Positions 6,571-33,110 of a stretch of 34,499 nucleotides of DNA are shown in pieces (within the stretch, counting starts at the first letter, position 1; every line of letters starts with the position of its first letter). The position numbers and the translations under genes were made by a program. Below the pieces are notes generated by a model. That model was not told the DNA's origin. It did not search any database and saw only the letters and a list, made by a program, of their open reading frames with translations. The stretch lies in NCBI GenBank assembly GCA_047631715.1, contig JBLICC010000003.1, forward strand, positions 1 through 34,499, in the 5' to 3' direction. This DNA comes from Alteromonas naphthalenivorans (GTDB taxonomy: Bacteria; Babelota; Babeliae; Babelales; CAIQNR01).

Positions 6571-6699
6571 TGATCCCTCGATACTATTTTTCACTTACGT
6601 CAAAAAATCACTCGGGATGAACTAATAAATTATTTTTTTAAATAACCAAGTTAACTAGTTCATTTCGAGTGATTTCGTAGAAATTGTATCGAGAAATCA
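6571..6699. repeat. REP-like inverted palindrome pair, copy 1
   Basis: Left arm TGATCCCTCGATAC..CACTCGGGATGAACTA, AT-rich spacer, right arm TAGTTCATTTCGAGTG-ATTTCGTAGAAATT-GTATCGAGAAATCA. Lies just downstream of the ileS stop. Confidence 0.85.
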
Positions 6700-6709
6700 G
6701 AATATTTTT

Positions 6710-9625
6710 TTAATTAACGGTACGTTCGACTACTGTTTTGCAACGAAGACAGAGTCCATCTTTATCACCAGAAGCTTCCCACTTCCAGCAACGGGGGCAT
6801 TTTGCACCATCCGCATGCTCAGCCTTAACTTTTAGACCAGCGCCTGATGGAATACAATCTGCAAATGCTTCGAAAGAGTCTTCATCAAAATCATCTTCTA
6901 AGTCATCTACATCTTCGTAATCAATAATCTGACAATCAGAAATAATGAAAAATTCTTTTAAGAACTCGTGCTTTGATTGGCCGGTTTTTTCAACTTCATC
7001 AAATAGCTCCTTTAGCAAGCTCATGTCGTCTTTTTTTGTGTCCATGACAATAGTCACCTTCGCTTCTAAAGAATGTTTAACAATCCCTTGCTGTCGTAAC
7101 TTTTCGATCGCTTTAAGCGCTGACGAACGTAAACTACGCAACAACTCCCACTGCTTTTCTTTTTTCTTGGCATATAAAATGGCTTTTTCTTGGCCACCAG
7201 TTTTAGCTGCCTGGTATTCCCATACAAAGGGAACGTCCCTAAAATCTTGTAAATGGATAGATTCAGGCTTATCTGCCTGATAATGGTCAGAAATCTGCTC
7301 TGCTGTAATCGACATTACTGGTGCCATAAGCCTGATTAAAACATCCAGGATATGCCAGCAAACAGTCTGTGCAGAGCGCCTATCAACCCCATCTGCTTGA
7401 TCAGTATAAAGCCGATCTTTTATGATGTCCAGATAAAAAGAACTCAGCTCTACGGTGCAATAATCGGTTAAGGCGTGGAATACTGCCGTAATATTTTTTT
7501 CTTCGTAGGCTTTTCTTACTTTTTGGCTAAACAAAGCAAGCTCATGGAGCGCATAACGATCCATCATACGCATGTCTTTAAGCTCAATAGCATCTTTTTT
7601 TATATCAAAATCATATAAATTAGAAAGTAAGAACCGAGCCGTATTTCTAACTTTTCGATTAACTTCACCAACATTACTTATAAGATTCTTAGAAACTGTA
7701 GCATCACCCTCAATATTAATAGCTGATACCCATAAACGTAGTCCATCTGTTCCAATTTGCTCAATAAGCTTATCTGGCGCCATAACATTACCCAACGACT
7801 TAGACATCTTACGGCCTTTGTCGTCAACCGTAAATCCATGAGTGGCAATGCCCTTCATAGCAGGCTTAGAATCGAGCATTAAGCTTGTAAGTAGAGAACT
7901 TTGGAACCAACCACGATGCTGATCGATACCTTCTAGATATAAATCTGCCGGATATTTTTGCCCACGCTCTTTAAGAACTGTGGTATGCGTTACGCCAGAA
8001 TCGAACCATACATCAAGAATGTCCTGTTCTTTTTTAAACTCAGTGCCCTTACATTCAGAACAGCTTAATCCAGCTGGAATAACTTCTTTTACATCAACAT
8101 CAGCCCAATACTCAACGCCCTCTTTTTCTATGCCTTGAGCAACAATTTTTATCAGCTCTGGAGAAGTATGCTCTTTATCGCAACCGATACAGATAACTGC
8201 AACAATAGGAGTTCCCCATACTCGTTGACGAGATAGGCACCACTCATAACGACTTGCAATCGTTGATTTTAAATGGTTACGTGTTGCTGCCGGCCAAAAC
8301 TTAATTGACTCAATAGCTTTAAGTGCACGTTTTTGTAGATCGTTATGCCCAAGTTCGCAGAACCATTGCTTGGTTGCTCTAAACATCAACCCATTTCTAC
8401 AACGCCAGCAATGTGGATACGGATGCTTAATAGATGCTTTGAATAATAATTTTTCTTTTTCGATAAGTTTTTTAAGTACCCATCCAAGCGCAGCGGTAAT
8501 CTCCATACCTTCTAATTCAACAGGCTTAATGCCTTCTGTATATTTACCATCACCACTTAATGGAGAGAAAATCTCGAGCCCATAACGAACACCCATCTCA
8601 TAATCTTCTGGTCCACAACCAGGAGCACTATGGACTACTGCTGTACCATCTTCGAGACCTACAAAATTATCTGCTAGTATTGGTGTTTTTTGACCTTCGA
8701 TAAAGGGATGATCTGCTGTTGACCCAACTAAATCTTCTGCTGTGCAGGTTGCTAGAACTTTCTTTTCTACACTCATAAGAGCGCAAAGCTTATCTGACAG
8801 TTTTGCACCAACTACCACTTGCTTGCCATTAACCTCTAAAAGCTCATACTCTGCTTTAGGTTTTAAGAACAAAGCACGGTTTAATGGGATAGTCCACGGT
8901 GTGGTTGTCCACATCAACATACTAACCGGCTTGTCTGTATTAAATACTTTTTGTGCGGCATCTTTATCGAGTTCAAACTCAACATATACCGACGGATCTT
9001 TTCGGTCTTTATGTTCGATCTCTGCTGATGCAAGAACGGTTTTACATGATGAACACCACGGAACTGTTTTGTTCTTTCGTGAAATGTATCCACCATCAAC
9101 ACAAGTTGCAAAAGCACGTACCGTATTAGCTTCTTGTTTATAATCCATAGTTAAATACGGATTATCCCAATCCATAAGCACACCAAGATCTTTAAACTGT
9201 TCTTTTTGTGCTTTAATCCAATGATTAGCACTTTCTCTACATTTTTTACGCAATTCTTGAGCATTAGCTTCTGGGTTCTCTTTAGAAACTTTTAGCTCAA
9301 TTGGTAGACCATGACAATCCCAACCTGGCGTAATTGGAACATGCTTACCAGCCATACGTTCTGATTTTGAGATAATATCTTTTAAAATTTTATTATATGC
9401 ATGCCCCAAATGGATGTTTCCATTGGCATAGGGTGGTCCATCGTGCAACAAGAATGCTGTCTTACCTTTGTTTTTTTCAAACGCTTTGGCATAAATATCG
9501 TCTTGCTTCCATCGATCAATAATTTTAGGATCTTCAATTTTAGAATTTCCACGAATAGGAAAGTCTGTAGTTGGAAGATTAAGCGTGTCTTTAAAGCTCT
9601 TTTTTGCCTTTTCGTCTTGAGCCAT
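6710..9625 (-). CDS. ileS: Isoleucine--tRNA ligase (bacterial IleRS1 type)
   Basis: Motifs HDGPPYANGNIHLGH (HIGH), GWDCHGLPIE, WTTTPWTIP, WCLSRQRVWG, LEGIDQHRGWFQSS, KMSKS and a C-terminal CPRCW..LCLRC zinc finger. Confidence 0.98.
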   Translation of the reverse strand: MAQDEKAKKSFKDTLNLPTTDFPIRGNSKIEDPKIIDRWKQDDIYAKAFEKNKGKTAFLLHDGPPYANGNIHLGHAYNKILKDIISKSERMAGKHVPITPGWDCHGLPIELKVSKENPEANAQELRKKCRESANHWIKAQKEQFKDLGVLMDWDNPYLTMDYKQEANTVRAFATCVDGGYISRKNKTVPWCSSCKTVLASAEIEHKDRKDPSVYVEFELDKDAAQKVFNTDKPVSMLMWTTTPWTIPLNRALFLKPKAEYELLEVNGKQVVVGAKLSDKLCALMSVEKKVLATCTAEDLVGSTADHPFIEGQKTPILADNFVGLEDGTAVVHSAPGCGPEDYEMGVRYGLEIFSPLSGDGKYTEGIKPVELEGMEITAALGWVLKKLIEKEKLLFKASIKHPYPHCWRCRNGLMFRATKQWFCELGHNDLQKRALKAIESIKFWPAATRNHLKSTIASRYEWCLSRQRVWGTPIVAVICIGCDKEHTSPELIKIVAQGIEKEGVEYWADVDVKEVIPAGLSCSECKGTEFKKEQDILDVWFDSGVTHTTVLKERGQKYPADLYLEGIDQHRGWFQSSLLTSLMLDSKPAMKGIATHGFTVDDKGRKMSKSLGNVMAPDKLIEQIGTDGLRLWVSAINIEGDATVSKNLISNVGEVNRKVRNTARFLLSNLYDFDIKKDAIELKDMRMMDRYALHELALFSQKVRKAYEEKNITAVFHALTDYCTVELSSFYLDIIKDRLYTDQADGVDRRSAQTVCWHILDVLIRLMAPVMSITAEQISDHYQADKPESIHLQDFRDVPFVWEYQAAKTGGQEKAILYAKKKEKQWELLRSLRSSALKAIEKLRQQGIVKHSLEAKVTIVMDTKKDDMSLLKELFDEVEKTGQSKHEFLKEFFIISDCQIIDYEDVDDLEDDFDEDSFEAFADCIPSGAGLKVKAEHADGAKCPRCWKWEASGDKDGLCLRCKTVVERTVN

Positions 9626-9730
9626 AACTGTGATCCTTAAAATTAAAATGGTGATCGATATTCACTACTCAATAAGCTTGCAGTATACTCTTCTTGCTTG
9701 TTTTCTCAATCAAAAAACGTGGAGGATCGC

Positions 9731-19000: not shown

Positions 19001-22000
19001 AAGTTGCCGTCTGGTAAATCTGCAACCGCTACATAGTCATGAGCCTGCCCATATTTTACAGCGCTTGTTGGTGTAACAGCATAAATATAGTTACCATTTG
19101 TAAGCCCTTCTCGATTAAGACTTAATGTTAGTTTACCAAAATAAATCGGATATAAACTTTTTTGTATTTGTTCTTGAGCAGATTGCATTGCAGTGTTCAA
19201 CGCATTTTGTAATGCCAGAGGAAGTGTTGCAAAAATAGCTTTTATACTTGTTCCACGAGCAACTCTTGAACCTACCTTACCTTGATTGTTTAAAGCTGCC
19301 ATAAGGATATCGTCTGTATTAAACCTTACCTGTACACCTGTTCTAACTGGCGGAGGAAACTTACCTTGAGGAGCCTGAGTACCACCCTTATACACATTTT
19401 GGCCAACTGGTTGCAGACTACAGTTGATGTCTCTCATATCTCCTCCAGAACATGCATAAGGAGAAGCTGATTTTAAGTACTGACCTTCTTTTGCTCCTGG
19501 TGGAACATATGGTGTATAAACTTGCCCGGTTCCTACATTAATAAGATAGTTACCCGCTACTATACTTGCATACGGTCGACCAATGTTTTTTAATTGATTA
19601 AGTGCAGTAACCATGCCATTTGCAGGCCCTTCTGCACATACAAAGATATCGTTTGGAGAGAACCCTGATGCTCGATAAAAGAAGTGACCTTTTGCAACAT
19701 CTTCTCTACTTGTAGCCGTAATATACACGTTATTAAATACTCGTTTTGTAAAGTTGAAAGGCCCCATAAACCCACTCTCTACCCAGTAGTTAGTAGCATC
19801 TTGTGACAAATTCCACTCTGTGTACGTTGCAAGAATACTTAGATATTTTTTTCCTTTTTTATTTCTACCAACAGACTCAGCAAATGCATAAAATGTTTTT
19901 TGTTTTCGTGGCCCACTGTTAGAACCTTTGGCTACTAGATCTTGTGATAGATTGAATCCAGAGAATGCTTCTGGCAACACACTCATAAGTGTTCCTGGAG
20001 TGCTTTTACCTATAGTAATACGTGTAGGTGCTTGACACGGTTGTGTTACAGGCCAATTCATGGTGGTACTGTGTATTGCTTGCTGTGATTTTCCAGACGG
20101 AGGAGCCGGAGCGGCAGATCCACCACCCGGACCAACACCTATAGAGTTAACATCCTGTTGGCAGTAAGATAATCCTGGGAAAAAGAGGTAATACAATGGT
20201 GGAACATCAAGAACCACAGAACTAGGCTTCCATGCTGTAACTCCTGGATGTGTATTAACAATTGCTTGCAACTTTTCATATCTATCTTGCGCTGCCGCTA
20301 AATTACTTGCTGTACCTTTTGTACTTTTTACAGATTGAATTCTGTTTATTAACTCTTCACTAAAACCTTTCGTTCTTAAAAATGCTGGTGTATGAGTAAG
20401 GCCATAATCTTTAGTTGCAGCAGAAAGACCTTTGAGCGAAGCAGTCTGGCTTTGGAATGCTAGACCATATTGGATTACTTCTTTTCTTGCCTTTTCGTAA
20501 GCTATTCTAAGGGGTTCATTAGTAATATATCTGTTATAGGGATTATAATGTGTTGGCATAAAGGCTGCACCCATATACACATTAGGAATAACTCTTATTT
20601 TTTGTGAAACTCTTTTGCCACCTTGTTTTGTAAAAATAGTAACTTCTTGCTCTTCAGGAGAACTGGCTTGCTCATACCCTTCACTTGTTTCGCCATGAAT
20701 AGGGAAATAAGATCCTTGGCTCAATGGCTTCATATTAACAGTGTACCAAAGAGGAAGGTCGTTAAGATCAACGTCATACCCTCGACCAGTAATTAAACTA
20801 AAGACTCCTTCTACTCCATGCGCATTTAATCCACCCGTAACTTGATCTGTTCCCAATGGCATAATTTGGAACGATCCTTCTTCTGCGCCACCTAAAGCTA
20901 TAACATAGTCTGTAAGTTTTTTATTTGTAGGAGATAGAGTACCATCACCATTTTTATGCGTTACTTGATAAATATAGAATTTTGATAAATAAGCTAATTT
21001 AGCTTTTTGGCTCCATTGTGTTTGCGATGCCTCTTGGCTTCCTTTACTAGAAGCGTTAGAAAGTATAGCAGCCATATCAGAAACAACTTTGTCTTCTTTA
21101 TTAATGGCGCTTCCTCCAAGAAGATCAGTAAGTGGCACTCGTGTAAACTTGTATCCACTGTATGTGGTAAATGGACCATTAACAGAATTTGATGTTGTAA
21201 AGTTTGTCATTGCCACAATCTGATTAACAATATTCATATCTCCGCCAGCTGCATTAAGTGCTTGTGAACGTGCTGCGGCTGCATAAGAAAAATCAACCTT
21301 ATCATCAGCAGTCATATAAGGAGTAAGTAACTTAACATCACTCATTGTTGTACCACTGGTATTTTCAACTGTTTGTTTTCCTTGTCCACTTCCCTGCTCA
21401 TAAGTAAGACCCGTTGTTAAACTAGAGATATATGTAATAGCTGGATTAACTACCAATTGCACTGTTGCAGCACCAGTTTTAACTGTTTTAGTTTTCCCAC
21501 TCTTATCAACAACTTGGCGTGATTGACCACCCACAACTTGCGGCACATAAAGTGGAACCATTTGTACTTGTGCATCTAAACAAATCACATACTCTTTAAG
21601 TGGCACATACGCATCTAATGTATTACGCAACAATGCATGAAGCGATGGAGTCATTACTCCAGCGTTTGCATGATCAGTAACAATTTCGTAAATATAAATA
21701 CCGCGTGCATTAATATTTTCTTCTATAGAAAAACCATATTCTGTTGTAGGAGCTTGTTGATCTTTAAGCTCTTCTGATACTTTTTCTTGTGCTTTTTTAA
21801 TGGCTATTATTTGATTAGTGTCAAAGAAAATATCTCCCGTCTTGGGATTAACAGACATAGTTTTATTAAACGCTTCGTTCTCATTTTTTAACTTTCCAAG
21901 TGCCTTTCGCAATGGCTCATTGACTTTGCCTTCGTAATTAATATCATTATTGAGCAATACATTTAAAAACCCGTTACCTTCCATTTGCTGTATTTTTAGA

Positions 22001-23799
22001 CCGCCAAATCCCTTTGGAGATGTTGGTGTTCTAAACTTACTAATTGCGTTATAAAACAACGGAGCTGGAGGTAATTTTTGACCAATACCAGCAAGTGCGT
22101 CTGCAACTTTTGGTCCACCTGCAGGAGTAGGAGACATAAAGAGTTTTCTAATAGTTGGATCGTTAAACGAGTGAGAATCTGATTTTGCCATTAAACTTGA
22201 TGAATCCATACGCACCCAATCGGCAGCACCAGCAGTATGAGAGAATGTTGTTGCACCAGCCATGTTTATAAATCTATTCACAAATGTTGAAATAGTGTCG
22301 ATCAGAGGGAATGTTGGTGCCCCTGCGCTATCTGCAGTACCGTTACCGGTAAAGTTCCAACCCGTATTTAGGTTGACCATTGCCCCAGTAAAGGTTGCGC
22401 TTCCAATATAGGTTGTTCCCCAATAAGTTGGTTGTGTTGCAGAACTCACATAGTAGTTAGCTGTTTTAAGATACGAAGGGTTAAAGTAACTTGCTGATTG
22501 TTTGTTGCTATCTGGTACTTCGCAGTACAAGAATGCTGAACTTGTTGCATCATTTTTATTAACAAGTTGCGGTGGAATCTGCAACCATAAATTACCAAAC
22601 TGTTGCGGAGCAGAAACTTCTTGATACAATGCTTCTTTTGCTTCAGCAGCAACTGTCATTTGATACAACGCACTTGGAACCGTAAAGGCCAGTGCTTGAC
22701 CAATTAACATGGCAAAGCCGGATACCACTGATTTTATAACGCGACCAATTGTTTTAACAGTGTCTTTAATTCCACGTCCTATTTTCCTAAGTACTGTCTT
22801 ATTATCTTCTATTTGTTTTTTAACACCTTCAACTTTTTCTTCTGCTGCTTTAAGTTCAGAGTCTGTAGCATCGCCTTTAGCGTGCCGAGCCCTTACTTGA
22901 TCAAGGTCGCTTGTTGCAGTATTAAGATCTTCATCAAGCTTTACGCCCCTTACTCTTATTCTTTCTACAGTACCTTTACCAGAAACCCAATCTGCGCCTC
23001 CACCAATACCATCTTCTGCATAATCTAAACCACGCCCTATTTTTTTTACAGTACGATCAGCCCAGTTTCCAGTATCTCTACCTCTTCGGGCTGCAGTTAA
23101 ATCGTCACCTTCTCGAACCATGCTATCAACTGTTTCTGTGATCTCTTTGTTAACGCCCTCGAGTTTTTCTTGCGTTTGCTTTTCCCCGAAAGTATCCCCT
23201 TTTGCTTGCTCATCTTTTAATCGTTCTTTTAATTCCGATTTTTGATCCTTAAGCTTCTTATACTTTTCTACTCTTTCTTCCGCAGGAGTTTTTTCTTTGC
23301 CGCCGCTTTCCTCAGGAGGCTTTTCGTCTCCGCCGGCTAAAAAATTATCGTCGCTGCCAGTTTCTGCTGGGCCTGTTGCGTCTGTTACATCTGCGGCATT
23401 ACGACCACCTGTAGTTCCTGCCTTGGCTACATCGGGATTATCTTGCTGATTTAAATCTGATGCAGTTGTATTATCTGACTGTGTAGCTGCTGCATCTGCA
23501 TTATGAATTTCCGTTTCTCCAGTTTTCCCAATGGTATTTAAGCTTTCAGTATCACCACTAGTTATAGTATTAGATTCATTCATAGTAGTATCGGTATTAG
23601 TACTTAAACCCGAATCATCTGTTGCTGTTGCACTATCCCTTAAATCAGCATCACCTACCCCATCAGTATCTTCACTCAATGAATCGGTTAGTCCACTTTC
23701 AACATCTGAAAGTCCCATTGCATAGAGTGGAGAGAATTGGATGAGTGGTGTGGCGGCTATGATAAGCGCCAGGAGAGTGAGATTTATTTTTATTTTCAT
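16087..23799 (-). CDS. Giant secreted hypothetical protein with dispersed internal repeats
   Basis: 2570-aa uninterrupted ORF. Architecture: signal peptide, acidic S/T/D-rich region, duplicated coiled coil, amphipathic then hydrophobic segment, repeated Y-I-Y..D-Y-V..S-L-x-T-G-x-x-Y modules and a Gln/Pro-rich tail. Confidence 0.9.
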   Translation of the reverse strand: MKIKINLTLLALIIAATPLIQFSPLYAMGLSDVESGLTDSLSEDTDGVGDADLRDSATATDDSGLSTNTDTTMNESNTITSGDTESLNTIGKTGETEIHNADAAATQSDNTTASDLNQQDNPDVAKAGTTGGRNAADVTDATGPAETGSDDNFLAGGDEKPPEESGGKEKTPAEERVEKYKKLKDQKSELKERLKDEQAKGDTFGEKQTQEKLEGVNKEITETVDSMVREGDDLTAARRGRDTGNWADRTVKKIGRGLDYAEDGIGGGADWVSGKGTVERIRVRGVKLDEDLNTATSDLDQVRARHAKGDATDSELKAAEEKVEGVKKQIEDNKTVLRKIGRGIKDTVKTIGRVIKSVVSGFAMLIGQALAFTVPSALYQMTVAAEAKEALYQEVSAPQQFGNLWLQIPPQLVNKNDATSSAFLYCEVPDSNKQSASYFNPSYLKTANYYVSSATQPTYWGTTYIGSATFTGAMVNLNTGWNFTGNGTADSAGAPTFPLIDTISTFVNRFINMAGATTFSHTAGAADWVRMDSSSLMAKSDSHSFNDPTIRKLFMSPTPAGGPKVADALAGIGQKLPPAPLFYNAISKFRTPTSPKGFGGLKIQQMEGNGFLNVLLNNDINYEGKVNEPLRKALGKLKNENEAFNKTMSVNPKTGDIFFDTNQIIAIKKAQEKVSEELKDQQAPTTEYGFSIEENINARGIYIYEIVTDHANAGVMTPSLHALLRNTLDAYVPLKEYVICLDAQVQMVPLYVPQVVGGQSRQVVDKSGKTKTVKTGAATVQLVVNPAITYISSLTTGLTYEQGSGQGKQTVENTSGTTMSDVKLLTPYMTADDKVDFSYAAAARSQALNAAGGDMNIVNQIVAMTNFTTSNSVNGPFTTYSGYKFTRVPLTDLLGGSAINKEDKVVSDMAAILSNASSKGSQEASQTQWSQKAKLAYLSKFYIYQVTHKNGDGTLSPTNKKLTDYVIALGGAEEGSFQIMPLGTDQVTGGLNAHGVEGVFSLITGRGYDVDLNDLPLWYTVNMKPLSQGSYFPIHGETSEGYEQASSPEEQEVTIFTKQGGKRVSQKIRVIPNVYMGAAFMPTHYNPYNRYITNEPLRIAYEKARKEVIQYGLAFQSQTASLKGLSAATKDYGLTHTPAFLRTKGFSEELINRIQSVKSTKGTASNLAAAQDRYEKLQAIVNTHPGVTAWKPSSVVLDVPPLYYLFFPGLSYCQQDVNSIGVGPGGGSAAPAPPSGKSQQAIHSTTMNWPVTQPCQAPTRITIGKSTPGTLMSVLPEAFSGFNLSQDLVAKGSNSGPRKQKTFYAFAESVGRNKKGKKYLSILATYTEWNLSQDATNYWVESGFMGPFNFTKRVFNNVYITATSREDVAKGHFFYRASGFSPNDIFVCAEGPANGMVTALNQLKNIGRPYASIVAGNYLINVGTGQVYTPYVPPGAKEGQYLKSASPYACSGGDMRDINCSLQPVGQNVYKGGTQAPQGKFPPPVRTGVQVRFNTDDILMAALNNQGKVGSRVARGTSIKAIFATLPLALQNALNTAMQSAQEQIQKSLYPIYFGKLTLSLNREGLTNGNYIYAVTPTSAVKYGQAHDYVAVADLPDGNFKGLGGKAITPYTKTLMSLVTGSVYTVSGQSIPNYLQSVVLAQNGGREGSVPSLLMQMIERSTKSKINPALAQRIMELNTLYIRQGKELQKEGSLLNSAPQLPIEALKHARAVTQPTIDDASVPSSHLITVGGEYFLQAKSVLAGTDKNKTQSLTTIFDFNATDQKRDSSLGVYYTLPKDKNSQFMVPTSALTGFELEAMRAAHGIAVAPNGEQEVTIPVTRIPLPLGPGEKTLIPDYGKDGRYMVNAKHINPVTNNAKGERYYYYYHIKTRAYYALVQDVTGNAYTKGESKAADNGYFVDLMSGDEYYVNGQPRMEQSSVAYALQKDERGEVVDVQQPLFMWGQANNSYGGQSLNVMANVGQGYSQYMYVQFSSVHKFQSSDKSKIMYLGYHVSGEGAGKQITPMRMMGSAQDPENLQRENLSVPKNIDTSGMTQSQVAELAYTSEVEQVMKAGWKLYRIDYDISPSGMQNGSVTFSEMTESMPKRYQMGNMQYVEGGIQGFKYPLAQTNKLTQALVYGRSFVAEGMGNRKGHTGIPTGIAALGTALCGVTSADSDAMIGFIPSMQSDFYVATQGTPRLGQFADYQSRSGGIQAIVTNYSLTGQKSASGVAIQSSYLGFRLDQQDEAIYGFAYSYASDKKLSDLKQSVNVFTNAEGHMQLVQEISATPRVNVSVPQGSIGSDYLIGFSNPVKRILYRIPPLRVAESYFEKDKTQYDTGDGSTARAFDLFKNMVSTYGVGTLVDYSSGAIFEPKKSDKKYLYPTGNTVSMQGLKLIRKQFKNATADPGSLRLTLPGSISRAIHYAQENKKPPMAPGARRELVAGHGTPQLMEQQSSRPPAAPRESEHGSGRPQSPPPNYRAPEQGHQKEQQQDSRGPQQQQQPQQEQQESNQPRAYQAPQQEQQQDSRGPQQQQQPQQQRQQDSDQPPAYQSPQRPEQRQAGLRMPTQSPRTALLDLGARIAAILRQPVII
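16240..16400 (-). repeat. 99-bp-period coding repeat (EQQQDSRGPQQQQQPQQ x2)
   Basis: GTGAATCTTG recurs at 16281 and 16380, with synonymous differences between the copies. Confidence 0.8.
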
Positions 23800-23980
23800 G
23801 AGTTAGGCCCCTAAATTTTATTTATCCCTATAAGGAATAAGCTTAAAATAAAGCGGCCTAGAAAATCAAGATTTGAATAGAAAAAAGTTTTCTCTATTTA
23901 TAACTTTAAGAACGCAACATACTTCGATACAACCACCTGTAGTGCCCACTCAGTATGACTTTGATTTGAATAAAAAAAAG

Positions 23981-25465
23981 TTAATCTTCTTCGGTATACG
24001 TATCAGACACAAGAAACTTTTTAATAAACTTATAAAGTTCTGGACGGTCCATGATATCGTGAAAACGGCCAACAACTTTATCGCCACGCATTACAAGAAA
24101 ATGCGGCACATCTGGCACTTTGTACTTTTTGGTCATATCAAAAGCGTCCGCAGCATCAACTTTAAAGAAACGTACTTTGTTTACAAATTTTGCAGCTGCC
24201 CAATCGATAACTGGCATCATATGCATGCATGTAGGGCAGGCATCGGTATAAAAATCTAAGAAAACTAATTTTTCTGGAGAGTCTTTCATACGACGTCTAA
24301 TTTCTACATCACTATTAATGTGAGCCACTTCAATCTTTTTAATTGGTTTTTCGAAAAAGAACGGTTCCAATTTATTTTGTGCTGTTTGGTTATATCCTAA
24401 AGAACTCAACCACCACACCACATCAAGACCAGCTTTAATACCATCACCGGCTGCAACACCTGCTTGTCTATAGCGAGGATCGCACACATCACCAGCTGCT
24501 ACCACACCAGAATATGAAGTCTGTTGCGTTCTACCATCAATAACTAAATAATTGTTTTTATTGGTTTTTAAACTTTCTTTAAAAAGCTTAGTGTTTGGAT
24601 CGTGTCCAATTCCCAAGAACACTCCTGTGATTGGCCAATTTTCTATTTCTCCAGTTTTAGTATTTTTTACATCGATATTGGTTACGTGGTATCCATCACC
24701 TTTAACTTCGGTAATCGCTCGGTTATGCTCAATCACAATATTATGACACCCAAGCACTCGATCTACCATACTTGGAGAAGCTTTTAATATATCTCCTCGA
24801 ACCAAAATGGTAATATTTTTTGCATACGGAGAAAGTTCAATTGCTTCTTCCATAGCAGAATCACCACCACCAACAACCACCACATCGTGGTCTCGATGAT
24901 ACGGAGCATCACAAATTGCACAGGTTGTTACCCCACGCCCCCAATAGGTCTGCTCACCTTCAACATTAAGTCCTCGAGCCGTTGCCCCTGTTCCAATCAT
25001 GATTGCCATGGCATTAATAGTATGTCCTTCCTCGGTCTCTACCACATAGGGCCACTTAGAAAAATCAACCGAGCTGACTGTGTCATCCACCATGATGGAT
25101 CCAAAGCTTTCTGCCTGTTCTTGCTGCAGGGCAACAACATCTCCACCTTTTATACGCGTGATACCAGGCCAGTTTTCTATATATGAGGTTCCTGTTAGTT
25201 GCCCTCCTGGTTTATTACCTCGCAAGACCACTGTTCTTACTTTTGTCCGAGATCCATATAAGGCCGCACTCAATGAAGCAGGGCCCGATCCTATAACTAA
25301 AAAGGGAACCACATTATCGAGACCTTCAAGCTTTTTAAGCATAAATCCTTTTGTAGTCCAACCAGAAAGCTGTGGTTTTTTTAAATAACGCCAACCTCCT
25401 GCAACACCAAAACATACTAGTGTGACAAGACCCCAAATAATATATTGTGATGGCTTTTTTAACAT
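23981..25465 (-). CDS. trxB: Thioredoxin reductase-thioredoxin fusion with N-terminal membrane anchor
   Basis: Motifs VIGSGPA, GGQL..IENWPG, ATG-like GTGA, GRGVTTCAICD, VVGGGDSAMEEA, GIGHDPN and AAGDV..YRQA. C-terminal thioredoxin domain DFYTDACPTC..KVDA..VP. N-terminal TM YIIWGLVTLVCFGVAGGW. Confidence 0.92.
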   Translation of the reverse strand: MLKKPSQYIIWGLVTLVCFGVAGGWRYLKKPQLSGWTTKGFMLKKLEGLDNVVPFLVIGSGPASLSAALYGSRTKVRTVVLRGNKPGGQLTGTSYIENWPGITRIKGGDVVALQQEQAESFGSIMVDDTVSSVDFSKWPYVVETEEGHTINAMAIMIGTGATARGLNVEGEQTYWGRGVTTCAICDAPYHRDHDVVVVGGGDSAMEEAIELSPYAKNITILVRGDILKASPSMVDRVLGCHNIVIEHNRAITEVKGDGYHVTNIDVKNTKTGEIENWPITGVFLGIGHDPNTKLFKESLKTNKNNYLVIDGRTQQTSYSGVVAAGDVCDPRYRQAGVAAGDGIKAGLDVVWWLSSLGYNQTAQNKLEPFFFEKPIKKIEVAHINSDVEIRRRMKDSPEKLVFLDFYTDACPTCMHMMPVIDWAAAKFVNKVRFFKVDAADAFDMTKKYKVPDVPHFLVMRGDKVVGRFHDIMDRPELYKFIKKFLVSDTYTEED

Positions 25466-25673: not shown

Positions 25674-28343
25674 ATGAATCAGTCCTCTTACTTACGAAGA
25701 TCTTTAGGTGTTTTTCTGACCCTTACAATGTTAATCAATACGCCTCTTTCTGCAGAAGCTCGTCCCACAAAAACAAGCGAAATCACACTTTCTCAGCTCC
25801 AAGACAGATCTATACTCGCTCTTAAACAAATGGATGTTTGTGCTGCAGTTATAGAAACAGCTGCCCAAAATGTAACAAATGGTGGCGCAAGTAATCTTGA
25901 TCAGAAGAAAAAAACTCAAGTACGCCTTCAGTTTCAATTACTTCGTAAAGAAATGAATCTTATTAAAGATGCTGCCGCAATTCATATTAATGAACAACAA
26001 CTTGTTGCTCTTACCTATTTAACTAACGAAGTTATCCGTGTATTAACTGCTGCAATCAACTCTGGTCTAGAAGTTGTTCCAGAACTTAATATCGAAATTC
26101 TTACAAAGAAATCAACAGAAAAACCAACTCTTGCACAAATTGATCGTATCTTAGTTCATAACGAAAAACGTCTGAAGGAACTTACAGATCTTTCAGAAAA
26201 AATCGGGTTAACGCAACTTAATAAGATGTATCGTGGCGCACGTAAGATGTATAGAAAATACTATGTATGGCCAATTGTAGAACATACACTTGTATATACT
26301 GCATTTATTCACTGGTCTGTATTTGTTACACCACGCTGGGCCGTAACAAACATGAAAAACGCAACCGACGATACTATTACACAATGGTTAGGTGAGTCTT
26401 TTGGTAGCATGCAAAAATGGATGGGTAAACCTCCTTCTAAAGCGCAACAAAATCACTCTCAAGTTCAATATCTTGTTGATGTAGATAAAAACGCTATCAG
26501 CTTTAAAGCTGCTCCTGAACTAAGAATTGATAATGCTCAAGTAAGAACAAAAAATACAAAGGGCGTGCTAGAAAAAATCTCTATGGAAGACCATATTAAT
26601 AACTTGGTTGACGAAGTAAGTATCTATCAAGATGAAAATGGAGAACTTGTAAAAAGATCTAAAGATGAAATCAAAATCATCAAAAAAGAACTTGAAGAAG
26701 CAATTTCCGATAATCTTCTTGCTATTGAAAATGCTCCAAAAGATGTTACTATCGACAAAACAAAAACAATTTCTGGTGCTGGTGGAGGATCTGTAAACTA
26801 CTGGACAGATCGTTTTGAAGGTATTGTGGATATGGATTGGAAATCAGCTCTTATTCAAATCCCTATCGCAAAATGGTTCCATAGCTACTTAGCAAAAGAT
26901 TATGACGTTGCTTCAAATTACCTTAGTAAAGTTACTAACAGAGTTGATGATCTTCTTTTTGGTATCACCAAAAAAAGTACCTACGAATCTCTAAGCATGC
27001 CCGAAGAATCTTTTGACGACATTGTTGGAAGAGAAGAAATTAAAGAAGAATTAAGCAAATTGATTGAGTACATCTGTTCACCAGATAAATTTGATCGTGC
27101 AGGCATTAAAGTTGAACGTGGCTATCTTTTTGCTGGTGACCCGCAAAATGGTAAGACATTTGCAGCAAAGGCTCTAACAAGAGAAATTAACGAAGCTATG
27201 AAAGCTACCGGCAGAAACGATAAAATGCGTTTATTCGAAATTAGCACCGATTCGTTAATCCAAAAAGGTATTGCCCATTGGATGGATCTTGCTCGTTACC
27301 ATGCACCATGCATCTTATTCTTAGACGAACTTGATCTTTTAAGATTGCAACGTGATGGCGATTCAAAACTATTGAGTGAGTTCTTAACCTGCATGAGTGG
27401 TACATTGAGTAAAGATGAAAAGTCTCATGTTATTATTCTTGCTGCAACCAACAAACCAGAAAACTTAGACTTTGCGCTTCGTCAACATGGTAGATTTGGT
27501 AAAATGTTCTGGTTCGATAAACCAACATTCAACAATCGTATTGCGTTCTTTAAAAAAGAATGTGAAAAACGTTGCATGAATACTGATCGTTTTGATTTTA
27601 ATGAATTAGCACAACAAACAGAAGGTTGCTCATTTGGTTCGCTTGATATTGTAATGAAAAAAACACTTATGCTAGCTAAGTTTGCTGGAACCTCTGTTAC
27701 TCAGCAACATTTCGAAAAAGCACTTGATAGCGAAATTAAAAAAATGATTCCTTGTGGGTATGATGTTCCTGCAGAAAAAGAACAAATTGTAGCTGTTCAC
27801 CAAGCTGGTAAAGCGATTATGAACATTATTCTTGAATCACAAAAGCAATTAAGTAAAGTAACAGTACTACCTATTACACAAGATCTACAAGAAGAACATG
27901 TAACACAGCAATACAACATTGCAGGGCTTCAGAGCAAAGACCAACGTGCTATTCGTCACGGCGGCATCTTCTCTTATCATTGGTCAGATTCACTTAATCT
28001 TGAGTCTCAAGATGAGTTAAAAAAACAATGTAAGATTTTGCTTGCAGGTAACGTTGCACAAACTGTGTTTGGTTTACCAAGTCCTTCTTACGACAAAGTA
28101 GACAAGCAAGAAGCATTTAAAATTGCAAAAGATATTGTGTTCGAAGGTCTTGATCAAAAAGATGTTGCTAAGGCAACTCGAGAAGACAAACTAACGCAAG
28201 CGTATCGTTTAGTTGAGCAATACGAACGCGAAATTGCAGTTGAACTTACAGAACAATTAACATGGCTTGTTAACACTACTACAGCGCTTCAAGATAGAAA
28301 GACTCTTTCTATTGGAGAACTTAACGAGTTACGCAGTAAGTAA
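25674..28343 (+). CDS. FtsH-like AAA+ ATPase with an inactivated M41 protease domain
   Basis: FDDIVG, Walker A GDPQNGKT, Walker B LFLDE, SRH ATNKPENLDFALRQHGRF, and M41-like VAVHQAGK (HEAGH lost) plus LLAG. About 440-aa N-terminal region with a signal or TM segment. Confidence 0.88.
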   Translation: MNQSSYLRRSLGVFLTLTMLINTPLSAEARPTKTSEITLSQLQDRSILALKQMDVCAAVIETAAQNVTNGGASNLDQKKKTQVRLQFQLLRKEMNLIKDAAAIHINEQQLVALTYLTNEVIRVLTAAINSGLEVVPELNIEILTKKSTEKPTLAQIDRILVHNEKRLKELTDLSEKIGLTQLNKMYRGARKMYRKYYVWPIVEHTLVYTAFIHWSVFVTPRWAVTNMKNATDDTITQWLGESFGSMQKWMGKPPSKAQQNHSQVQYLVDVDKNAISFKAAPELRIDNAQVRTKNTKGVLEKISMEDHINNLVDEVSIYQDENGELVKRSKDEIKIIKKELEEAISDNLLAIENAPKDVTIDKTKTISGAGGGSVNYWTDRFEGIVDMDWKSALIQIPIAKWFHSYLAKDYDVASNYLSKVTNRVDDLLFGITKKSTYESLSMPEESFDDIVGREEIKEELSKLIEYICSPDKFDRAGIKVERGYLFAGDPQNGKTFAAKALTREINEAMKATGRNDKMRLFEISTDSLIQKGIAHWMDLARYHAPCILFLDELDLLRLQRDGDSKLLSEFLTCMSGTLSKDEKSHVIILAATNKPENLDFALRQHGRFGKMFWFDKPTFNNRIAFFKKECEKRCMNTDRFDFNELAQQTEGCSFGSLDIVMKKTLMLAKFAGTSVTQQHFEKALDSEIKKMIPCGYDVPAEKEQIVAVHQAGKAIMNIILESQKQLSKVTVLPITQDLQEEHVTQQYNIAGLQSKDQRAIRHGGIFSYHWSDSLNLESQDELKKQCKILLAGNVAQTVFGLPSPSYDKVDKQEAFKIAKDIVFEGLDQKDVAKATREDKLTQAYRLVEQYEREIAVELTEQLTWLVNTTTALQDRKTLSIGELNELRSK

Positions 28344-28353
28344 CATACAAAAA

Positions 28354-28393
28354 TCATCCTGAGTGATTTCGTAGAAATCGTATCGCAGGATCA
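28354..28393 (+). repeat. Solo REP-like arm
   Basis: TCATCCTGAGTG-ATTTCGTAGAAATC-GTATCGCAGGATCA, 10 nt after the FtsH-like stop and abutting the terminator. Confidence 0.8.
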
Positions 28394-28432
28394 AAAAAAT
28401 AAGACCGGTTTAAACGCCGGTCTTATTTTTTT
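28393..28432. terminator. Bidirectional intrinsic terminator, copy A
   Basis: A7-TAAGACCGG-TTTAAACG-CCGGTCTTA-T7, between convergent genes. Confidence 0.85.
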
Positions 28433-28446
28433 AAACTATAACTATT

Positions 28447-30321
28447 TTATGCTGCAGATTCTGTGCTCTGATCTGCTTTCCATTTTTTAAATCTCTTTTC
28501 TTTTTCGTTTGCTTTCCATTTTTTAAATCTCTTTTCTTTTTCGTTTGCTTTCCATTTTTCAAATTTTTTATTTGTATTATTTGCATAGTCGCTATATGCA
28601 TTATCTTTTTTTTGTTCATAAGCGAATTTCTTTCTTTCACCTTTATAAGTCTGTACGTCTCTTATTAGATGTTGTTTATCATTTATATATTTCGTCTTAT
28701 TATCATACTTTTTTTTATCTTTTTGTACGTTTTCAAAATCCTCATAAACATACCTTGTAAACATAGGATCACGAGAAAAATGTTCTTTGTTAAATACACC
28801 TTCAGGATTAGTTCTTCCAATTTCATCACCATCGTCATCGATATATGGTGGATATGTTGTTTTTTGTTTAGCCAAACCTTCAAACAGTTTATCTCTAGCA
28901 CTCCAATCGTCATATCCCCCTACTTGAGTATGATCTTGTTCTGCATCATCTTTTTTAAAATTTGCCCTATCTATAACATTTTGTTTATTTGATTCTTTGT
29001 AAGCTTTTTGCGTCTTTTTATCAAAAAAACTACTCTGTCTGAGCCAATCTTTAAAGTTAATATCTAACTCTTCTTTTTCTTCTTTATTTATGTCTTCTCT
29101 TTGACCTTCTATTAATAGGTCATACTGGTTGTCTTCTTCCACAGAGTCAAAAGGCCTTGGTTGATCATAATCATCAGAATCCATCCTTTCATCATTGGTA
29201 AGGTCGAGATCATTTATCTTTTCCTTATATTTATATTTAATTTTTTGAATAGTTTTTTTATTCTCTTTTTCCCATTGTTTTCTAAATTTAGAATCTTTAT
29301 TATTTGCTTCCGAATCAATTGACTTAATTTTCGCATCTCGTTCTGTTCTACCTTTTTCTGCTTTAAGTCTTTTTTCATGAAGTTTTACAAAACTCTTGTC
29401 TTTACTAAGACCTTCTTCTTGTTCCTGTATTTTTTGTAGATTTTTACTCCAAGATTTCATTGAATTGTGTTTAAGTATTGTTTCGAGTTTTGCGTCAATT
29501 TTTTCTATTAATTTATATTTATAACCTGGATTAGATTTTTCTAATTTTTCCTTAATATCTGCTAATGATGAAAACTGATCGATTGCCTCTTCTTCTTTAT
29601 CTTTAGGTTTCTTAAGTTTATCTATTCTTGAAAAATCTATATTGTTAATTTTTGCTTCTTTTTCTTTCTTATTACTATCATACTCTTCGATGTCATCTGC
29701 AGAACGGCCATAAGCCCATTTTGCACGTGCCAGTTGAAGTTCACTATCAAGATTTTTAGGATCTTTATAATATTTATTATTTTTATCTTTAAACTTATTA
29801 TTTATATCTTGTTTAACTGATTCAGATTCATCTTCCCATAATTCAGTTATTTTATTTTGATCATTTTTATTAAATTTTCCCCAATGCCTAAGATGACTAT
29901 TTATCTCATCAGTAAGTGGGAGGTAATTAGGAAGAGAACGTTCATAATTAAAAGAATAATGTTCCGTATAATCTTTTTTGAAATTCACTAAATCAGAATC
30001 TTCTGCCTGCGTAGGTTTACCTGATCCTACCGATGTTATAACGCTAGATGCTCTCTCTTCACCTGGTGCTGTAACCGTATTAGCCGCTGCCGCTGCATCA
30101 AGGTCTTTTTCGCCTACGGTTTCTGCTGCAGATTGTTGCCTAAGAGTCATGTTTGCTTGTAACTGTTCTGCAGCTACAGAATCTACTGATGTAGTATCTG
30201 GATTTTCACCTGAAGATGGACCTAATTCTTGTTCTTCAGGTATCGGTTCCATTGTATCCATTCCAAAAATTGGCGTTACTAATATGCTGGTTAAAAACAA
30301 TAACAGTATTCTTTTCTTCAT
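28447..30321 (-). CDS. Secreted, highly charged (K/E/D-rich) helical orphan protein
   Basis: 624 aa with signal MKKRILLLFLTSILVTPIFG, AAGGA RBS, low GC and a C-terminal tandem repeat. Confidence 0.85.
   Translation of the reverse strand: MKKRILLLFLTSILVTPIFGMDTMEPIPEEQELGPSSGENPDTTSVDSVAAEQLQANMTLRQQSAAETVGEKDLDAAAAANTVTAPGEERASSVITSVGSGKPTQAEDSDLVNFKKDYTEHYSFNYERSLPNYLPLTDEINSHLRHWGKFNKNDQNKITELWEDESESVKQDINNKFKDKNNKYYKDPKNLDSELQLARAKWAYGRSADDIEEYDSNKKEKEAKINNIDFSRIDKLKKPKDKEEEAIDQFSSLADIKEKLEKSNPGYKYKLIEKIDAKLETILKHNSMKSWSKNLQKIQEQEEGLSKDKSFVKLHEKRLKAEKGRTERDAKIKSIDSEANNKDSKFRKQWEKENKKTIQKIKYKYKEKINDLDLTNDERMDSDDYDQPRPFDSVEEDNQYDLLIEGQREDINKEEKEELDINFKDWLRQSSFFDKKTQKAYKESNKQNVIDRANFKKDDAEQDHTQVGGYDDWSARDKLFEGLAKQKTTYPPYIDDDGDEIGRTNPEGVFNKEHFSRDPMFTRYVYEDFENVQKDKKKYDNKTKYINDKQHLIRDVQTYKGERKKFAYEQKKDNAYSDYANNTNKKFEKWKANEKEKRFKKWKANEKEKRFKKWKADQSTESAA
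28474..28564 (-). repeat. 36-bp coding tandem repeat, about 2.5 copies (KKWKANEKEKRF)
   Basis: TGCTTTCCATTTTTTAAATCTCTTTTCTTTTTCGTT is perfect at 28474 and 28510 and partial at 28546. Confidence 0.92.
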
Positions 30322-30441
30322 CTTTTCTTCCTTTTAAGCTTGCGTACTCTTTAAACTAATAGAACTATTAGAATAACAAATCGGAAGATCAGAAATAAAG
30401 AGTTTTCTTTCAAAACTAGCAATCTAAGCTTATTTTGCTCT

Positions 30442-30497
30442 TTAAACTTTCAAAAATAAGACCGGTTTTAACGCCGGTCTTATTTTTGAAAGTTTAA
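30442..30497. terminator. Intrinsic terminator, copy B (24-bp perfect stem), downstream of rpiB
   Basis: TTAAACTTTCAAAAATAAGACCGG-TTTTAACG-CCGGTCTTATTTTTGAAAGTTTAA. Confidence 0.85.
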
Positions 30498-30513
30498 TTA
30501 TTAGAAGCTTATA

Positions 30514-30942
30514 TTAGCCATCAATCATGGTAAGTCGTTCTTGATACCTACCGCCTAAAAATTTTGCCTTGTACCAGACTCTTATCATGGCAAGTGCATC
30601 ATCTAAAGAAATGTAACTTGTAGGGAGTACTAAAATATTTGCATTGTCGTGCTCTTTGCTTAGTTTTGCAATCTCTATATTCCACGCAAGGGCAGCATAT
30701 ACACCCTTAAATCTATTTGCTGCAATAGACATGCCTACACCAGATCCACACAAAAGAACTCCTCCATCAACTTTTTTGTCTTGAACTTTCTTGGCAACTT
30801 CTTGTGCATACAATGGAAAGTCACAATTATTGGCGCTTTCGCACCCTACATCAACCCATACAATCGAATCTATATGCATCGACTGTATTAAATGATTTTT
30901 GAGTTCAAACCCACGATGGTCGGTTCCAATTGCAATCTTCAT
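30514..30942 (-). CDS. rpiB: Ribose-5-phosphate isomerase B (RpiB/LacA/LacB family)
   Basis: Motifs MKIAIGTDHRG, LCGSGVGMSIAANRFKGV, EHDNANIL and F.GGRY..R. Confidence 0.94.
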   Translation of the reverse strand: MKIAIGTDHRGFELKNHLIQSMHIDSIVWVDVGCESANNCDFPLYAQEVAKKVQDKKVDGGVLLCGSGVGMSIAANRFKGVYAALAWNIEIAKLSKEHDNANILVLPTSYISLDDALAMIRVWYKAKFLGGRYQERLTMIDG

Positions 30943-31682
30943 GATTTCCCCTTTTTCTTTTTATTACGAAGAACGGAAGAATGTTTTTTTATTTTTTTGG
31001 GAGCTATTTTTTGTTTATCTACAGATGGAGCGCGATGTTTTACAGTAGAAACATTACCCAAAGTATCTACATTCCATTGGGCAGAAGAAAAGTGCTCAGG
31101 ACTACTGAAATAGAGCTTCATCTTATGCGCATGGCCCTCTTGCAGAATATCTGCGCCATTACTATTAGTGCGTTCAAAACGAACTTCGTAAGGTGTTTTA
31201 TGATTATTAAAGAGTGTTCCAAACATTGTTTTATATTCTACAGCAAGCTCAATAGATTTAACTTCAAACGGCATGTAACGCTTATCATCAACTTCGAGAT
31301 GCATTGCCCATGGCACCGGTTTAACAGACAGTGGATTGTCGTGCGTACTCAATACATAAAACGAAATATAATGTTTATTTTCTTTGAGCTGTCTACGTAC
31401 AAACGCATGGCGCACATCGGTATTTTTCCCACGCATATCAGCATTTATATCTGAATACACCGTACGCATTTCATCAGAAAGCCACAATGCGTCAAACAAA
31501 CCTAGCGTATTAAAATTATCATAAATATTAACCTCTTTTACATACTGCTTAATTTTCTTTTGATAATTTTTATATTCTTTACCTTGTGGAAAGTTTTCTT
31601 TTGCCGTATCAATTATAGTTCCTCCGCACCCAGGGAGCAAAAAAAGCGCAACTAACATGGATAGATTGATTATTCGGTTCAT
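30939..31682 (-). CDS. Lipoprotein, hypothetical
   Basis: Lipobox LPG-C after a hydrophobic stretch, GAGG RBS, Lys-rich tail and an ATGA overlap with rpiB. Confidence 0.85.
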   Translation of the reverse strand: MNRIINLSMLVALFLLPGCGGTIIDTAKENFPQGKEYKNYQKKIKQYVKEVNIYDNFNTLGLFDALWLSDEMRTVYSDINADMRGKNTDVRHAFVRRQLKENKHYISFYVLSTHDNPLSVKPVPWAMHLEVDDKRYMPFEVKSIELAVEYKTMFGTLFNNHKTPYEVRFERTNSNGADILQEGHAHKMKLYFSSPEHFSSAQWNVDTLGNVSTVKHRAPSVDKQKIAPKKIKKHSSVLRNKKKKGKS

Positions 31683-31768
31683 TCATTAGCCTCTTTATTG
31701 TACACTAACAGTTAAATTACATTCTGTTAGCCTAAAAAAAAGATGAAGACTTTACAAGGTACCAGTCG

Positions 31769-32986
31769 ATGAGTTTATCAATAGCAACATTTTTAGCATG
31801 GCGTTATGCCAAGCAAGCAATACGCCAATCAACGCTACAGACAATGCTATGGATCTGTTTTGGTAGTATTTTTGTAGGAACTTTTTCTCTTGCACTTATT
31901 GTTTCTATCATGAGCGGATTTGAATCAGAAACACAAAAAAAACTACAAGGTATTTATCCAGACATTATTATTGAATCACCTACAGGCACTTTTTTAGATG
32001 CTCCACCACTTATTAAACATCTTAAAAAAAACTTTTCAACCATTGCCCATACCTGTACGTATAGCTCGCAGCAAGTACTTATACAAGCACCACACACACA
32101 AGAGCCTACCATTGTTGGCATACTCAAAGGCATTACCCCAGAAGAAGAACGGGTTACCAATCTGCATACCAAATATCAGTTGGCTCCCAATGTACAACTT
32201 AAAGGTCCTCATGTTATTATTGGCAAAACAATTGCAGAAACACTCAATAAAGAAGTTGGCGAGACTATAACTTTGCTCTATAGCGCGAACCCTCATGCAC
32301 AACTGAATAACATACGTTTTTCTTCTCTAGAAGTAACAATTGCAGGTCTCATAAGCACTGGTATGACAGAATACGACAACGCTCTTGTGATCGCTCATCA
32401 AGGATTTGTTACATCACTCTTTGAAGAAGAATGCATTAATCAAGTAGGCGTTAAACTTACTAACCCAATCCAAGCACAACACATAGCAAAACAATGCGCT
32501 ACAATACCCGAGTTACATGCTTATCGATGGCAAGACTTATACCCATCGCTGGTTTCTGCTCTTAAATTAGAAAAATATGCCATGTTCTTTATTTTGGGAT
32601 TAATTGTACTGGTTGCAAGCATGAACAATATTTCTCTTTTATTTATGTTTATTACTGCAAAACGTAAAGAAATTGCCCTTCTAAAAATGCTCGGTATGAA
32701 CACGCGCACCGTTATGCTTATCTTTTTATTCTTTAATCTTTTTATTACGTGCATAGCAACACTGTTTGGACTTGCATGCGCCTACGGTGTAGGAAGGCTT
32801 TTACAACGCTATCCATTTATCGAACTCCCTGATGTTTATTATATTTCTCATTTGCCTGTACATCTTGACCCGTATATGTTTTTAACCATTTTTATACTTG
32901 TACTTGTATTGGGAATACTTTCTGCCTTACTACCCCTCTTTTCTATTAAAAAAATTAACATCACCCAAACCCTACGCTTTGAATAA
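31769..32986 (+). CDS. LolC/E-family (FtsX-like) lipoprotein-releasing ABC permease
   Basis: Motifs AWRY, TM1..SIMSGF, periplasmic domain, WQD..L.SAL.LEK, VASMN..S.L.M.I..KRKEIALLK.LG, YYISHLP and C-terminal LRFE. Confidence 0.9.
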   Translation: MSLSIATFLAWRYAKQAIRQSTLQTMLWICFGSIFVGTFSLALIVSIMSGFESETQKKLQGIYPDIIIESPTGTFLDAPPLIKHLKKNFSTIAHTCTYSSQQVLIQAPHTQEPTIVGILKGITPEEERVTNLHTKYQLAPNVQLKGPHVIIGKTIAETLNKEVGETITLLYSANPHAQLNNIRFSSLEVTIAGLISTGMTEYDNALVIAHQGFVTSLFEEECINQVGVKLTNPIQAQHIAKQCATIPELHAYRWQDLYPSLVSALKLEKYAMFFILGLIVLVASMNNISLLFMFITAKRKEIALLKMLGMNTRTVMLIFLFFNLFITCIATLFGLACAYGVGRLLQRYPFIELPDVYYISHLPVHLDPYMFLTIFILVLVLGILSALLPLFSIKKINITQTLRFE

Positions 32987-32987
32987 G

Positions 32988-33110
32988 GTGTCTCTCGATA
33001 CAACCGCCTTTGGCGCCCACTCGAGATGAACTTTATTCTTTGTTATTATAAAAATCGTAAATTAATCGGTTCATCCCGAGTGGTTTCGTAGAAATTGTAT
33101 CGAGGGACTC
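32988..33110. repeat. REP-like inverted palindrome pair, copy 3
   Basis: GTGTCTCTCGATAC-AACCGCCTTTGGCGCC-CACTCGAGATGAAC ... GTTCATCCCGAGTG-GTTTCGTAGAAATT-GTATCGAGGGAC. Begins 1 nt after the permease stop. Confidence 0.88.

Follow-up and report, generated by a model that had tools for sequence, protein, structure and literature searches.

Dispersed tandem-GA hairpins of a Babelales genome: probable gene-less ends of a small element with a non-Ssn GIY-YIG nuclease

Background

Ssn proteins, small nucleases of the GIY-YIG fold, are presented by their authors as the first site-specific single-stranded DNA (ssDNA) endonucleases, and the text of that study describes how SsnA binds the NTS hairpin only as ssDNA and makes its cut a few bases 5' of this hairpin (Chenal 2025, PMC11893778). 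Here we consider a family of hairpins, termed arms below, on contig C3 of genome G000, a Babelales assembly (GCA_047631715.1; 844,823 bases in 58 contigs, 90% complete, 35.6% G+C); this contig, 34,499 nucleotides in all, is the window of the present analysis. An arm has the layout TCAY-xyz-GAG-TG-[variable stem with a GNA or GNNA loop, often with a second tandem GA]-TG-TAT-CGA-x'y'z', in which the two triplets pair with each other and the TCAY start is the tag from which orientation is read. We consider it probable that these arms are the dispersed, gene-less end hairpins of a small selfish element of the form arm-nuclease-arm, cut in trans by a GIY-YIG nuclease of about 95 residues that is not of the Ssn type.

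The NTS/SRM-Ssn system, as the text of PMC11893778 presents it, resembles the arms in that many dispersed, oriented and strand-specific hairpins bracket a small single-domain GIY-YIG gene with their 5' ends outward, and in its occurrence in host-associated bacteria. Unlike the plain 8-9-bp stem described for SRM, the arms combine a tandem G.A with a short outer stem, an inner stem that varies and a TAT bulge of 3 nt; the degenerate SRM search string, taken from the methods of that paper, matches once genome-wide and overlaps 0/102 arms, and the SRM-flanked clade does not include the partner nuclease, which scores higher against YazA than against Ssn-type proteins. The system works like NTS/SRM-Ssn yet fails two of its defining features, namely the SRM string and the Ssn clade. 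As hairpin repeats flanking small GIY-YIG ssDNA nucleases have already been published there, the novelty that the earlier note on this DNA saw in the arms is lowered, whereas the hairpin itself and the nuclease branch do differ. What the present analysis adds is the placement of the nuclease on a separate branch, a second tandem G.A, the homology of the spacers, two pair geometries and the empty sites.

A second point of comparison is provided by the CGTC repetitive extragenic palindromic sequences (REPs; CGTC-1 to -4, with Rickettsia RPE-4/-6; Di Nocera 2013, PMC3733652), which according to the text of that study share with the arms the placement after genes and between convergent ones, the dimers and clusters with tails overlapping stop codons, and the copies lying in frame in genes of DNA replication and repair, here mutS and dnaX. 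Unlike these REPs, as characterized in the text of the study rather than in its consensus figure, the arms have no terminal CGTC (or TGTC/CCTC) tag; their interrupted stem with GA/GA, TAT bulge and 13-27-nt inner part contrasts with an 8-9-bp stem, 4-5-nt loop and CCA tail; and subtype A of the arms forms only tags-inward pairs, whereas tags-outward HH dimers predominate and TT dimers are rare among the CGTC REPs. The GTAG REP/REPIN-RAYT system is comparable in its non-autonomous hairpin pairs that seemingly spread as units and in its nested mosaic clusters, and differs in that the arms show no GTAG tag and no detected link to an HUH transposase. The UPF0213 proteins (B. subtilis YazA, E. coli YhbQ) are of the same size as the partner nuclease and include its best solved-structure matches; unlike it, they form their own branch, and the sampled YazA-type loci lack arms. 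Literature searches, with subscription journals and figures outside their scope, returned no description of the tandem-GA hairpin or of its nuclease branch; the text of PMC5737381 contains no match to the arms, and the core strings are absent from 12/14 supplement files of PMC11893778 and from 4 of PMC3733652.

Results and discussion

Arm anatomy and conserved pairing

With the exact search pattern TCAY-xyz-GAGTR-[8-40 nt]-TGTATCGA-x'y'z', genome G000 yields 69 arms, and 86 with at most one mismatch, whereas three genomes simulated under a Markov-3 model yield 0 and 0-1; a reversed-pattern control gave 0 matches. A second census collected 102 candidate arms, 91 of which pair at no fewer than two triplet positions and constitute the filtered set used for geometry and context (the window's decayed arm at 11005 and its arm at 28354 fall outside this set). 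Among 93 distinct arms, unfiltered for pairing, Watson-Crick pairs occur at the four outer positions in 80, 83, 84 and 86 cases, and mutual information with average product correction is highest on the predicted partners, the exception being the first inner pair, where the 3' base is nearly fixed. Because the existence of two subtypes could mimic covariation, shuffling was performed within each subtype, and 0/5000 such shuffles of 92 arms reached the observed pairing at three positions. In other genomes 87/99 distinct arms, collected with unconstrained triplets, pair at all three triplet positions, including the combinations GGT/ACC, GCT/AGC and GTC/GAC. The arms thus show covariation at their stem positions: the triplets CCC/GGG, TTC/GAA, CTC/GAG and CCT/AGG from which the earlier note had argued that pairing rather than sequence is conserved are all present, and its argument holds in this larger set.

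The pairing is also asymmetric between the strands. Wobbles are one-sided on the motif strand (43 G.T versus 0 A.C at the first inner pair), and for 82/102 arms the motif strand has the lower energy of the two under standard folding; for each arm a fold is predicted on only one of the DNA strands. A second symmetric tandem G.A of the form YGAR/YGAR is present in 21/36 long arms, as against 0.14 in shuffles, in agreement with the strand-specific, tandem G.A-containing structure envisaged by the earlier note. The C(GTA)G loop which that note regarded as the common inner hairpin does occur, whereas genome-wide cGTTAg (13/55 short-arm loops) is ahead of cGTAg (10) and cAAAg (7). In the text of the studies concerned, GNA/GNNA mini-hairpins of DNA are described as far more stable than their RNA counterpart (PMC13037366) and tandem GA-AG as strongly stacking in DNA (PMC8163305). 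A K-turn reading, based on the box C/D consensus, was set aside, since a C-G pair involves the base that follows the bulge and arm orientation does not follow that of transcription.

Linkage to a small GIY-YIG nuclease

In relatives of G000, arms bracket genes for GIY-YIG proteins of about 95 residues, in which Tyr, Gly, Arg, His, Tyr and Glu residues are invariant. A search of metagenome proteins with a query built from seven arm-adjacent proteins, in which flanking sequence played no part, returned 80 nuclease loci. Under a relaxed pattern, a tandem-GA arm lies within 300 nt at 63 of these 80, where shuffles predict 0.75, and on both sides at 35. The nearest upstream arm is on the same strand as the gene in 41/46 cases and the nearest downstream arm on the opposite strand in 41/52, such that the 5' ends point outward, and the published SRM motif is found at 0/80. 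Within the phylum, an arm is present within 500 nt at 18/30 nuclease loci, and the nuclease is encoded by 43/69 motif-positive genomes versus 35/192 motif-negative ones, an odds ratio of 7.4 that is inflated by kinship. Loci picked by the motif hold a nuclease gene in 4/122 cases.

By analogy to SsnA, we regard it as likely that the arms are bound and cut in trans by this nuclease. The earlier note had proposed a trans-acting nuclease encoded outside the window, of either RAYT/HUH or GIY-YIG type, and these results favour the latter. Of 211 open reading frames (ORFs) beside 80 motif loci, 140 were profile-scanned, and three GIY-YIG genes were found among these 140; no Y1_Tnp match was found in the 90%-complete G000 or in the 140 scanned ORFs, none of the 211 contains an HUH motif, and no transposase family was recovered among the 140.

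Two subtypes with opposite pair geometry

The 91 filtered arms fall into subtype A, with a triplet ending in C (40 arms), and subtype B (51 arms). All 13 A-A pairs have their tags inward, with 39-42 nt between the TCAT starts rather than the spacer of about 35 nt estimated earlier. B-B pairs comprise 8 tags-outward ones, with a distance of 27-37 nt and a spacer that is visibly shared, together with 5 inward and 4 tandem pairs; the tags-outward ones resemble a gene-less version of the element. The A spacers, which the earlier note took to be unrelated, prove to be homologous, their mean best-partner score being 17.7 versus 4.5+/-0.8 for shuffled sequences (14 spacers; those next to murD and lolC are 30/37 identical), from which it follows that the A-A pair spread as one unit. 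The tails of A arms end in ...CCTTA, with TTA 10-12 nt past CGA in 25/40 A tails versus 3/51 B tails, and this tail is nearly private to G000, with 21 matches there and 3 single ones in 260 other genomes. B arms are nested within A units at several sites. The two subtypes spread as different units in G000, and their opposite geometries record how the repeats move in this genome. As a separate observation, a second repeat type (CCGCCATAGCC...GGCGACGGC and GCGAAGCCTGGGAGTG; sites in Table 1) occurs joined to partial arms, and on contig C10 it breaks up an A-A pair.

With its terminal inverted repeats around a shared non-coding core, the A-A unit resembles a miniature inverted-repeat transposable element, or MITE, and one might read it as such: an element of about 125-140 bp with the terminal repeats TAAGG...CCTTA, moved by an unrelated DDE transposase whose preference for TA/TAA targets would explain the placement at stop codons. 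The homology of the spacers, the identical geometry of 13/13 pairs, the G000-specific TTA-bearing tail and the fact that the stops of murD and the lolC-like gene fall inside that tail all fit such an origin. We nonetheless hold it to be unlikely: an element of the DDE type would not require covarying, strand-specific pairing, PF13358 (DDE_3) and PF01609 (DDE_Tnp_1) have no match in G000 (an incomplete genome), and the scanned ORFs beside motif loci include no transposase family. Target-site duplications are not readable either, as the same-genus genome G054 is only about 72-79% identical and too divergent for this purpose.

Genomic placement and empty sites

Of the 55 clusters formed by the arms of G000, 26 are flanked by codirectional genes, 16 by convergent and 4 by divergent ones, where the background is 205, 45 and 89; a further 6 are within crude ORF calls and 3 at contig edges. 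This tendency to follow genes, together with the abundance of G.U-compatible pairs and a role of this kind argued for REPs in the text of Di Nocera (PMC3733652), might suggest that the arms act as RNA, stabilising or terminating mRNA 3' ends, and are kept by selection on transcripts. Against this, a subtype-A arm that has a stop within 45 nt is in 20/20 cases on the other strand from the gene concerned, and comparable B arms split 10 versus 7, making an RNA function unlikely as the primary one. The GTTA and GTA loops are furthermore not GNRA, no terminator is called at 14392, and Rfam has no match to the window's arms (12 loci of relatives gave only miRNA matches far below threshold). Orthologous junctions also do without the element. 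We judge this explanation quite improbable; a secondary RNA effect can be accommodated by the proposal that the arms are ends of a nuclease-driven element.

The arms show lineage-specific presence with empty orthologous sites. The exact pattern is found in 69/261 phylum genomes, with 72 copies in G000 versus 1 in G054; among the matches listed, many named carriers are Dependentiae (Babeliales), and the motif is also represented in Bacteroidota, Cloacimonadota, Peribacteria, Myxococcota, Proteobacteria and others. The empty sites that the earlier note proposed to look for were found in G054 at the murD-ftsW junction, which between the same anchors measures 133 nt there versus 304 nt in G000, and at the lolC-pgk junction (199 versus 347 nt). 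G054 has no arm after trxB, ftsH, ileS or pepA either, the last three having other neighbours in that genome. Three arms of G000 are translated in frame, within mutS (C1:89596-89634), dnaX (C2:13665-13698) and a TonB-like gene (C2:2192-2231). The mutS copy is absent from G054, relative to which mutS has a net insertion of about 18 codons, and the TonB-like region aligns poorly with G054; the dnaX arm has a decayed counterpart there, indicating that some insertions are older.

Phylogeny of the nuclease

An unrooted tree of 47 rows and 92 columns was computed, containing 28 of the 93 arm-flanked proteins. The Ssn clade (cd10448) is represented by proxy through 8 SRM-flanked proteins, one of them from A. 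lipoferum 4B, which belongs to the defining genome set of the Ssn study (PMC11893778). These 8 form their own 100/100 branch of length 1.64, excluding all 28 sampled arm-flanked proteins, and YazA/YhbQ form a separate 97/94 branch. Median scores of arm-flanked proteins are 86 bits within the group, 51 against YazA-type and 38 against Ssn-type proteins, the Ssn-type group itself having 107 bits within. The nearest solved structures are the UPF0213 proteins 1YWL and 1ZG2 (E 2e-17 and 3e-17), and no NCBIfam family scores above its cut-off for six partner proteins. YazA-type loci have arms in 0/4 cases, and the two annotated ones adjoin trmNF in a housekeeping context. On this sequence evidence, the arm-flanked nucleases are placed outside the Ssn clade and, as far as a short and unrooted tree shows, seemingly outside YazA/YhbQ as well. 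Apart from these groups, the phylum has a third clade of GIY-YIG proteins, of about 82 residues and on a 100/100 branch (loci L011, L017, L020, L025 and L026), whose loci mostly lack tandem-GA or SRM flanks.

That the arms might simply be ordinary members of the SRM/CGTC family cut by Ssn nucleases is suggested by the shared arm-gene-arm layout with 5' ends outward, by the similar TCAY start, and by some arm-flanked proteins of Bacteroidota that reach 59 bits against Ssn-type proteins. Given the lack of the SRM string at all 102 arms and all 80 arm-type nuclease loci, as well as the separate branch and the low between-group score of the SRM-flanked proteins, we consider this very unlikely. Mobilisation as REPs by a RAYT/HUH tyrosine transposase, which the REP-like distribution and dimers in general might recall, is least credible of all, given the missing GTAG tag and the searches above, which recovered GIY-YIG genes and neither Y1_Tnp nor HUH-motif proteins.

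Proposed mechanism, objections and significance

Under the explanation that we favour, the minimal element would consist of an arm, a GIY-YIG nuclease gene and a second arm. An arm would fold whenever its DNA strand is exposed as single-stranded, and the cognate nuclease would nick the folded arm, by analogy to SsnA a few nt 5' of the hairpin. The nicked arm may then be copied in the ensuing repair, and we infer that spread proceeds by nick-triggered copying or recombination, with G000 keeping only gene-less derivatives of the element.

Several observations weigh against this proposal. Searches of the 90%-complete G000 assembly recovered no GIY-YIG gene whatever: PF01541 has no match there, so that even the uvrC-type one, which relatives would lead one to expect, is missing; as 255/261 genomes of the phylum have a PF01541 match, the assembly is probably missing genes, and the nuclease gene is either lost or unassembled in G000. 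If the cut is made 5' of the tag, it would not set free an A-A pair whose tags point inward, and the movement of A-A pairs is therefore left unexplained. The exact TAT-bulge form is found at only 8/80 metagenome nuclease loci, most of which carry shorter cores, and arm starts differ as well: they read GAG-, GGT-, AGT- or GAA-TCAY in G000 and CGY-TCRY at nuclease loci, where most arms begin with CGY, as only 1/91 arms in G000 does. At E<=1e-18, 7/20 genomes with at least 10 exact arms lack the nuclease. The tree is short (92 columns) and does not unite the arm-flanked nucleases in one clade, and single arms show no bias with respect to local GC skew (13 versus 13, by a crude proxy). Finally, ViennaRNA DNA energies are weak and the predicted fold is often another one, for which reason we infer the sheared geometry of the tandem G.A from DNA chemistry.

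A broader claim can be advanced only tentatively, with doubt slightly outweighing belief: that these proteins represent a second cross-phylum family of site-specific ssDNA nucleases, separate from Ssn and near the poorly understood YazA/YhbQ, which reads a non-canonical fold of sheared tandem G.A with freely covarying pairs on either side, and which disperses its recognition hairpins and gene-less pairs of them without a transposase. If true, this would extend the toolbox of site-specific ssDNA endonucleases by a branch whose target is structurally different, provide an example from nature of sheared G.A DNA being read by a protein, and help to explain how transposase-less REP-like repeats multiply. 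It would also suggest a mobile origin of, or a link to, the UPF0213 proteins.

Arm loci and other features of the window

The window has six arm loci (Table 1), three of them inverted pairs, as the earlier note had recognized. That note had listed five, all of which are present 9-19 nt past the stops of conserved genes (ileS, murD, pepA, and the genes for an FtsH-like AAA protein and a lolC-like permease); it missed the sixth, after trxB. These names, like those of ftsW and pgk, are our reading of Pfam matches. The arm consensus proposed for all loci stands for its GAG...CGA core, from which the arm at 28354 departs in lacking the 3' A of CGA, that at 11005 through decay, and that at 14392-14434 in lacking the TAT bulge, the sole variant of this kind found in G000. 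An assembly artefact was ruled out: the arms are covered by contigs of two runs (one of which may be the source), and positions 6551-6890 were matched without differences in a DNA run from another study. Among the data sets listed as containing the arms there was no RNA one, which has no bearing on their expression.

Table 1. Arms and spacers of the window, and sites of the second repeat type elsewhere in G000
Feature	Position	Strand	Remarks
Subtype-A arm, left arm of tags-inward pair	6571..6622, core 6578-6620	-	CCC/GGG; long inner stem
AT-rich spacer, 39 nt	6621..6659	.	Homologous to other A-A spacers; 28/35 versus copy on contig C32
Subtype-A arm, 18 nt past ileS stop	6658..6699, core 6660-6692	+	TTC/GAA; cGTAg triloop
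Decayed subtype-A arm (ATC/TAA)	10994..11041, core 11005-11039	-	Conserved 3' tail overlaps murD stop TAA (10994-10996)
Spacer, 41 nt	11040..11080	.	30/37 identical to spacer 33030-33070
Subtype-A arm	11079..11120, core 11081-11113	+	CCC/GGG; whole pair absent at murD-ftsW junction of G054
Variant single arm	14392..14434	-	No TAT bulge; perfect 13-bp inner stem; 19 nt past pepA stop
Subtype-B single arm	23924..23958	-	ACT/AGT; 23 nt past trxB stop; absent in G054
Subtype-B-like single arm	28354..28390	+	CCT/AGG; CGA -> CGC; 11 nt past FtsH-like gene stop
Subtype-A arm	32984..33031, core 32995-33029	-	CTC/GAG; tail overlaps lolC-like stop TAA (32984-32986)
Homologous spacer, 41 nt	33030..33070	.	
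Subtype-A arm	33069..33110, core 33071-33103	+	CCC/GGG; cGTAg triloop; pair absent at lolC-pgk junction of G054
Second repeat type, sites	G000:C10:7781-7850, C10:12241, C23:5147; also C6, C8, C14, C37		

Several other features of the window may be recorded. A 2570-residue ORF on the minus strand (16087-23799) has no Pfam match and ends in Gln-rich C-terminal repeats; its counterpart in G054 is only about 64-79% identical, in patches. A 1692-residue protein encoded at 1385-6463 (minus strand) gives weak WD40/beta-propeller matches and is unmatched in the syntenic stretch of G054. Near-identical A-tract/T-tract hairpins at 28395-28430 and 30442-30497, which look like bidirectional terminators, bracket a 624-residue ORF (28447-30321) that is unmatched in G054; in that genome, hairpins of a similar kind lie after ftsH and ileS. 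At its C-terminus the ORF has a repeated 12-residue unit, encoded by three 36-nt tandem copies (28474-28581). Lastly, the thioredoxin reductase encoded at 23981-25465 (minus strand) carries a fused C-terminal thioredoxin domain.

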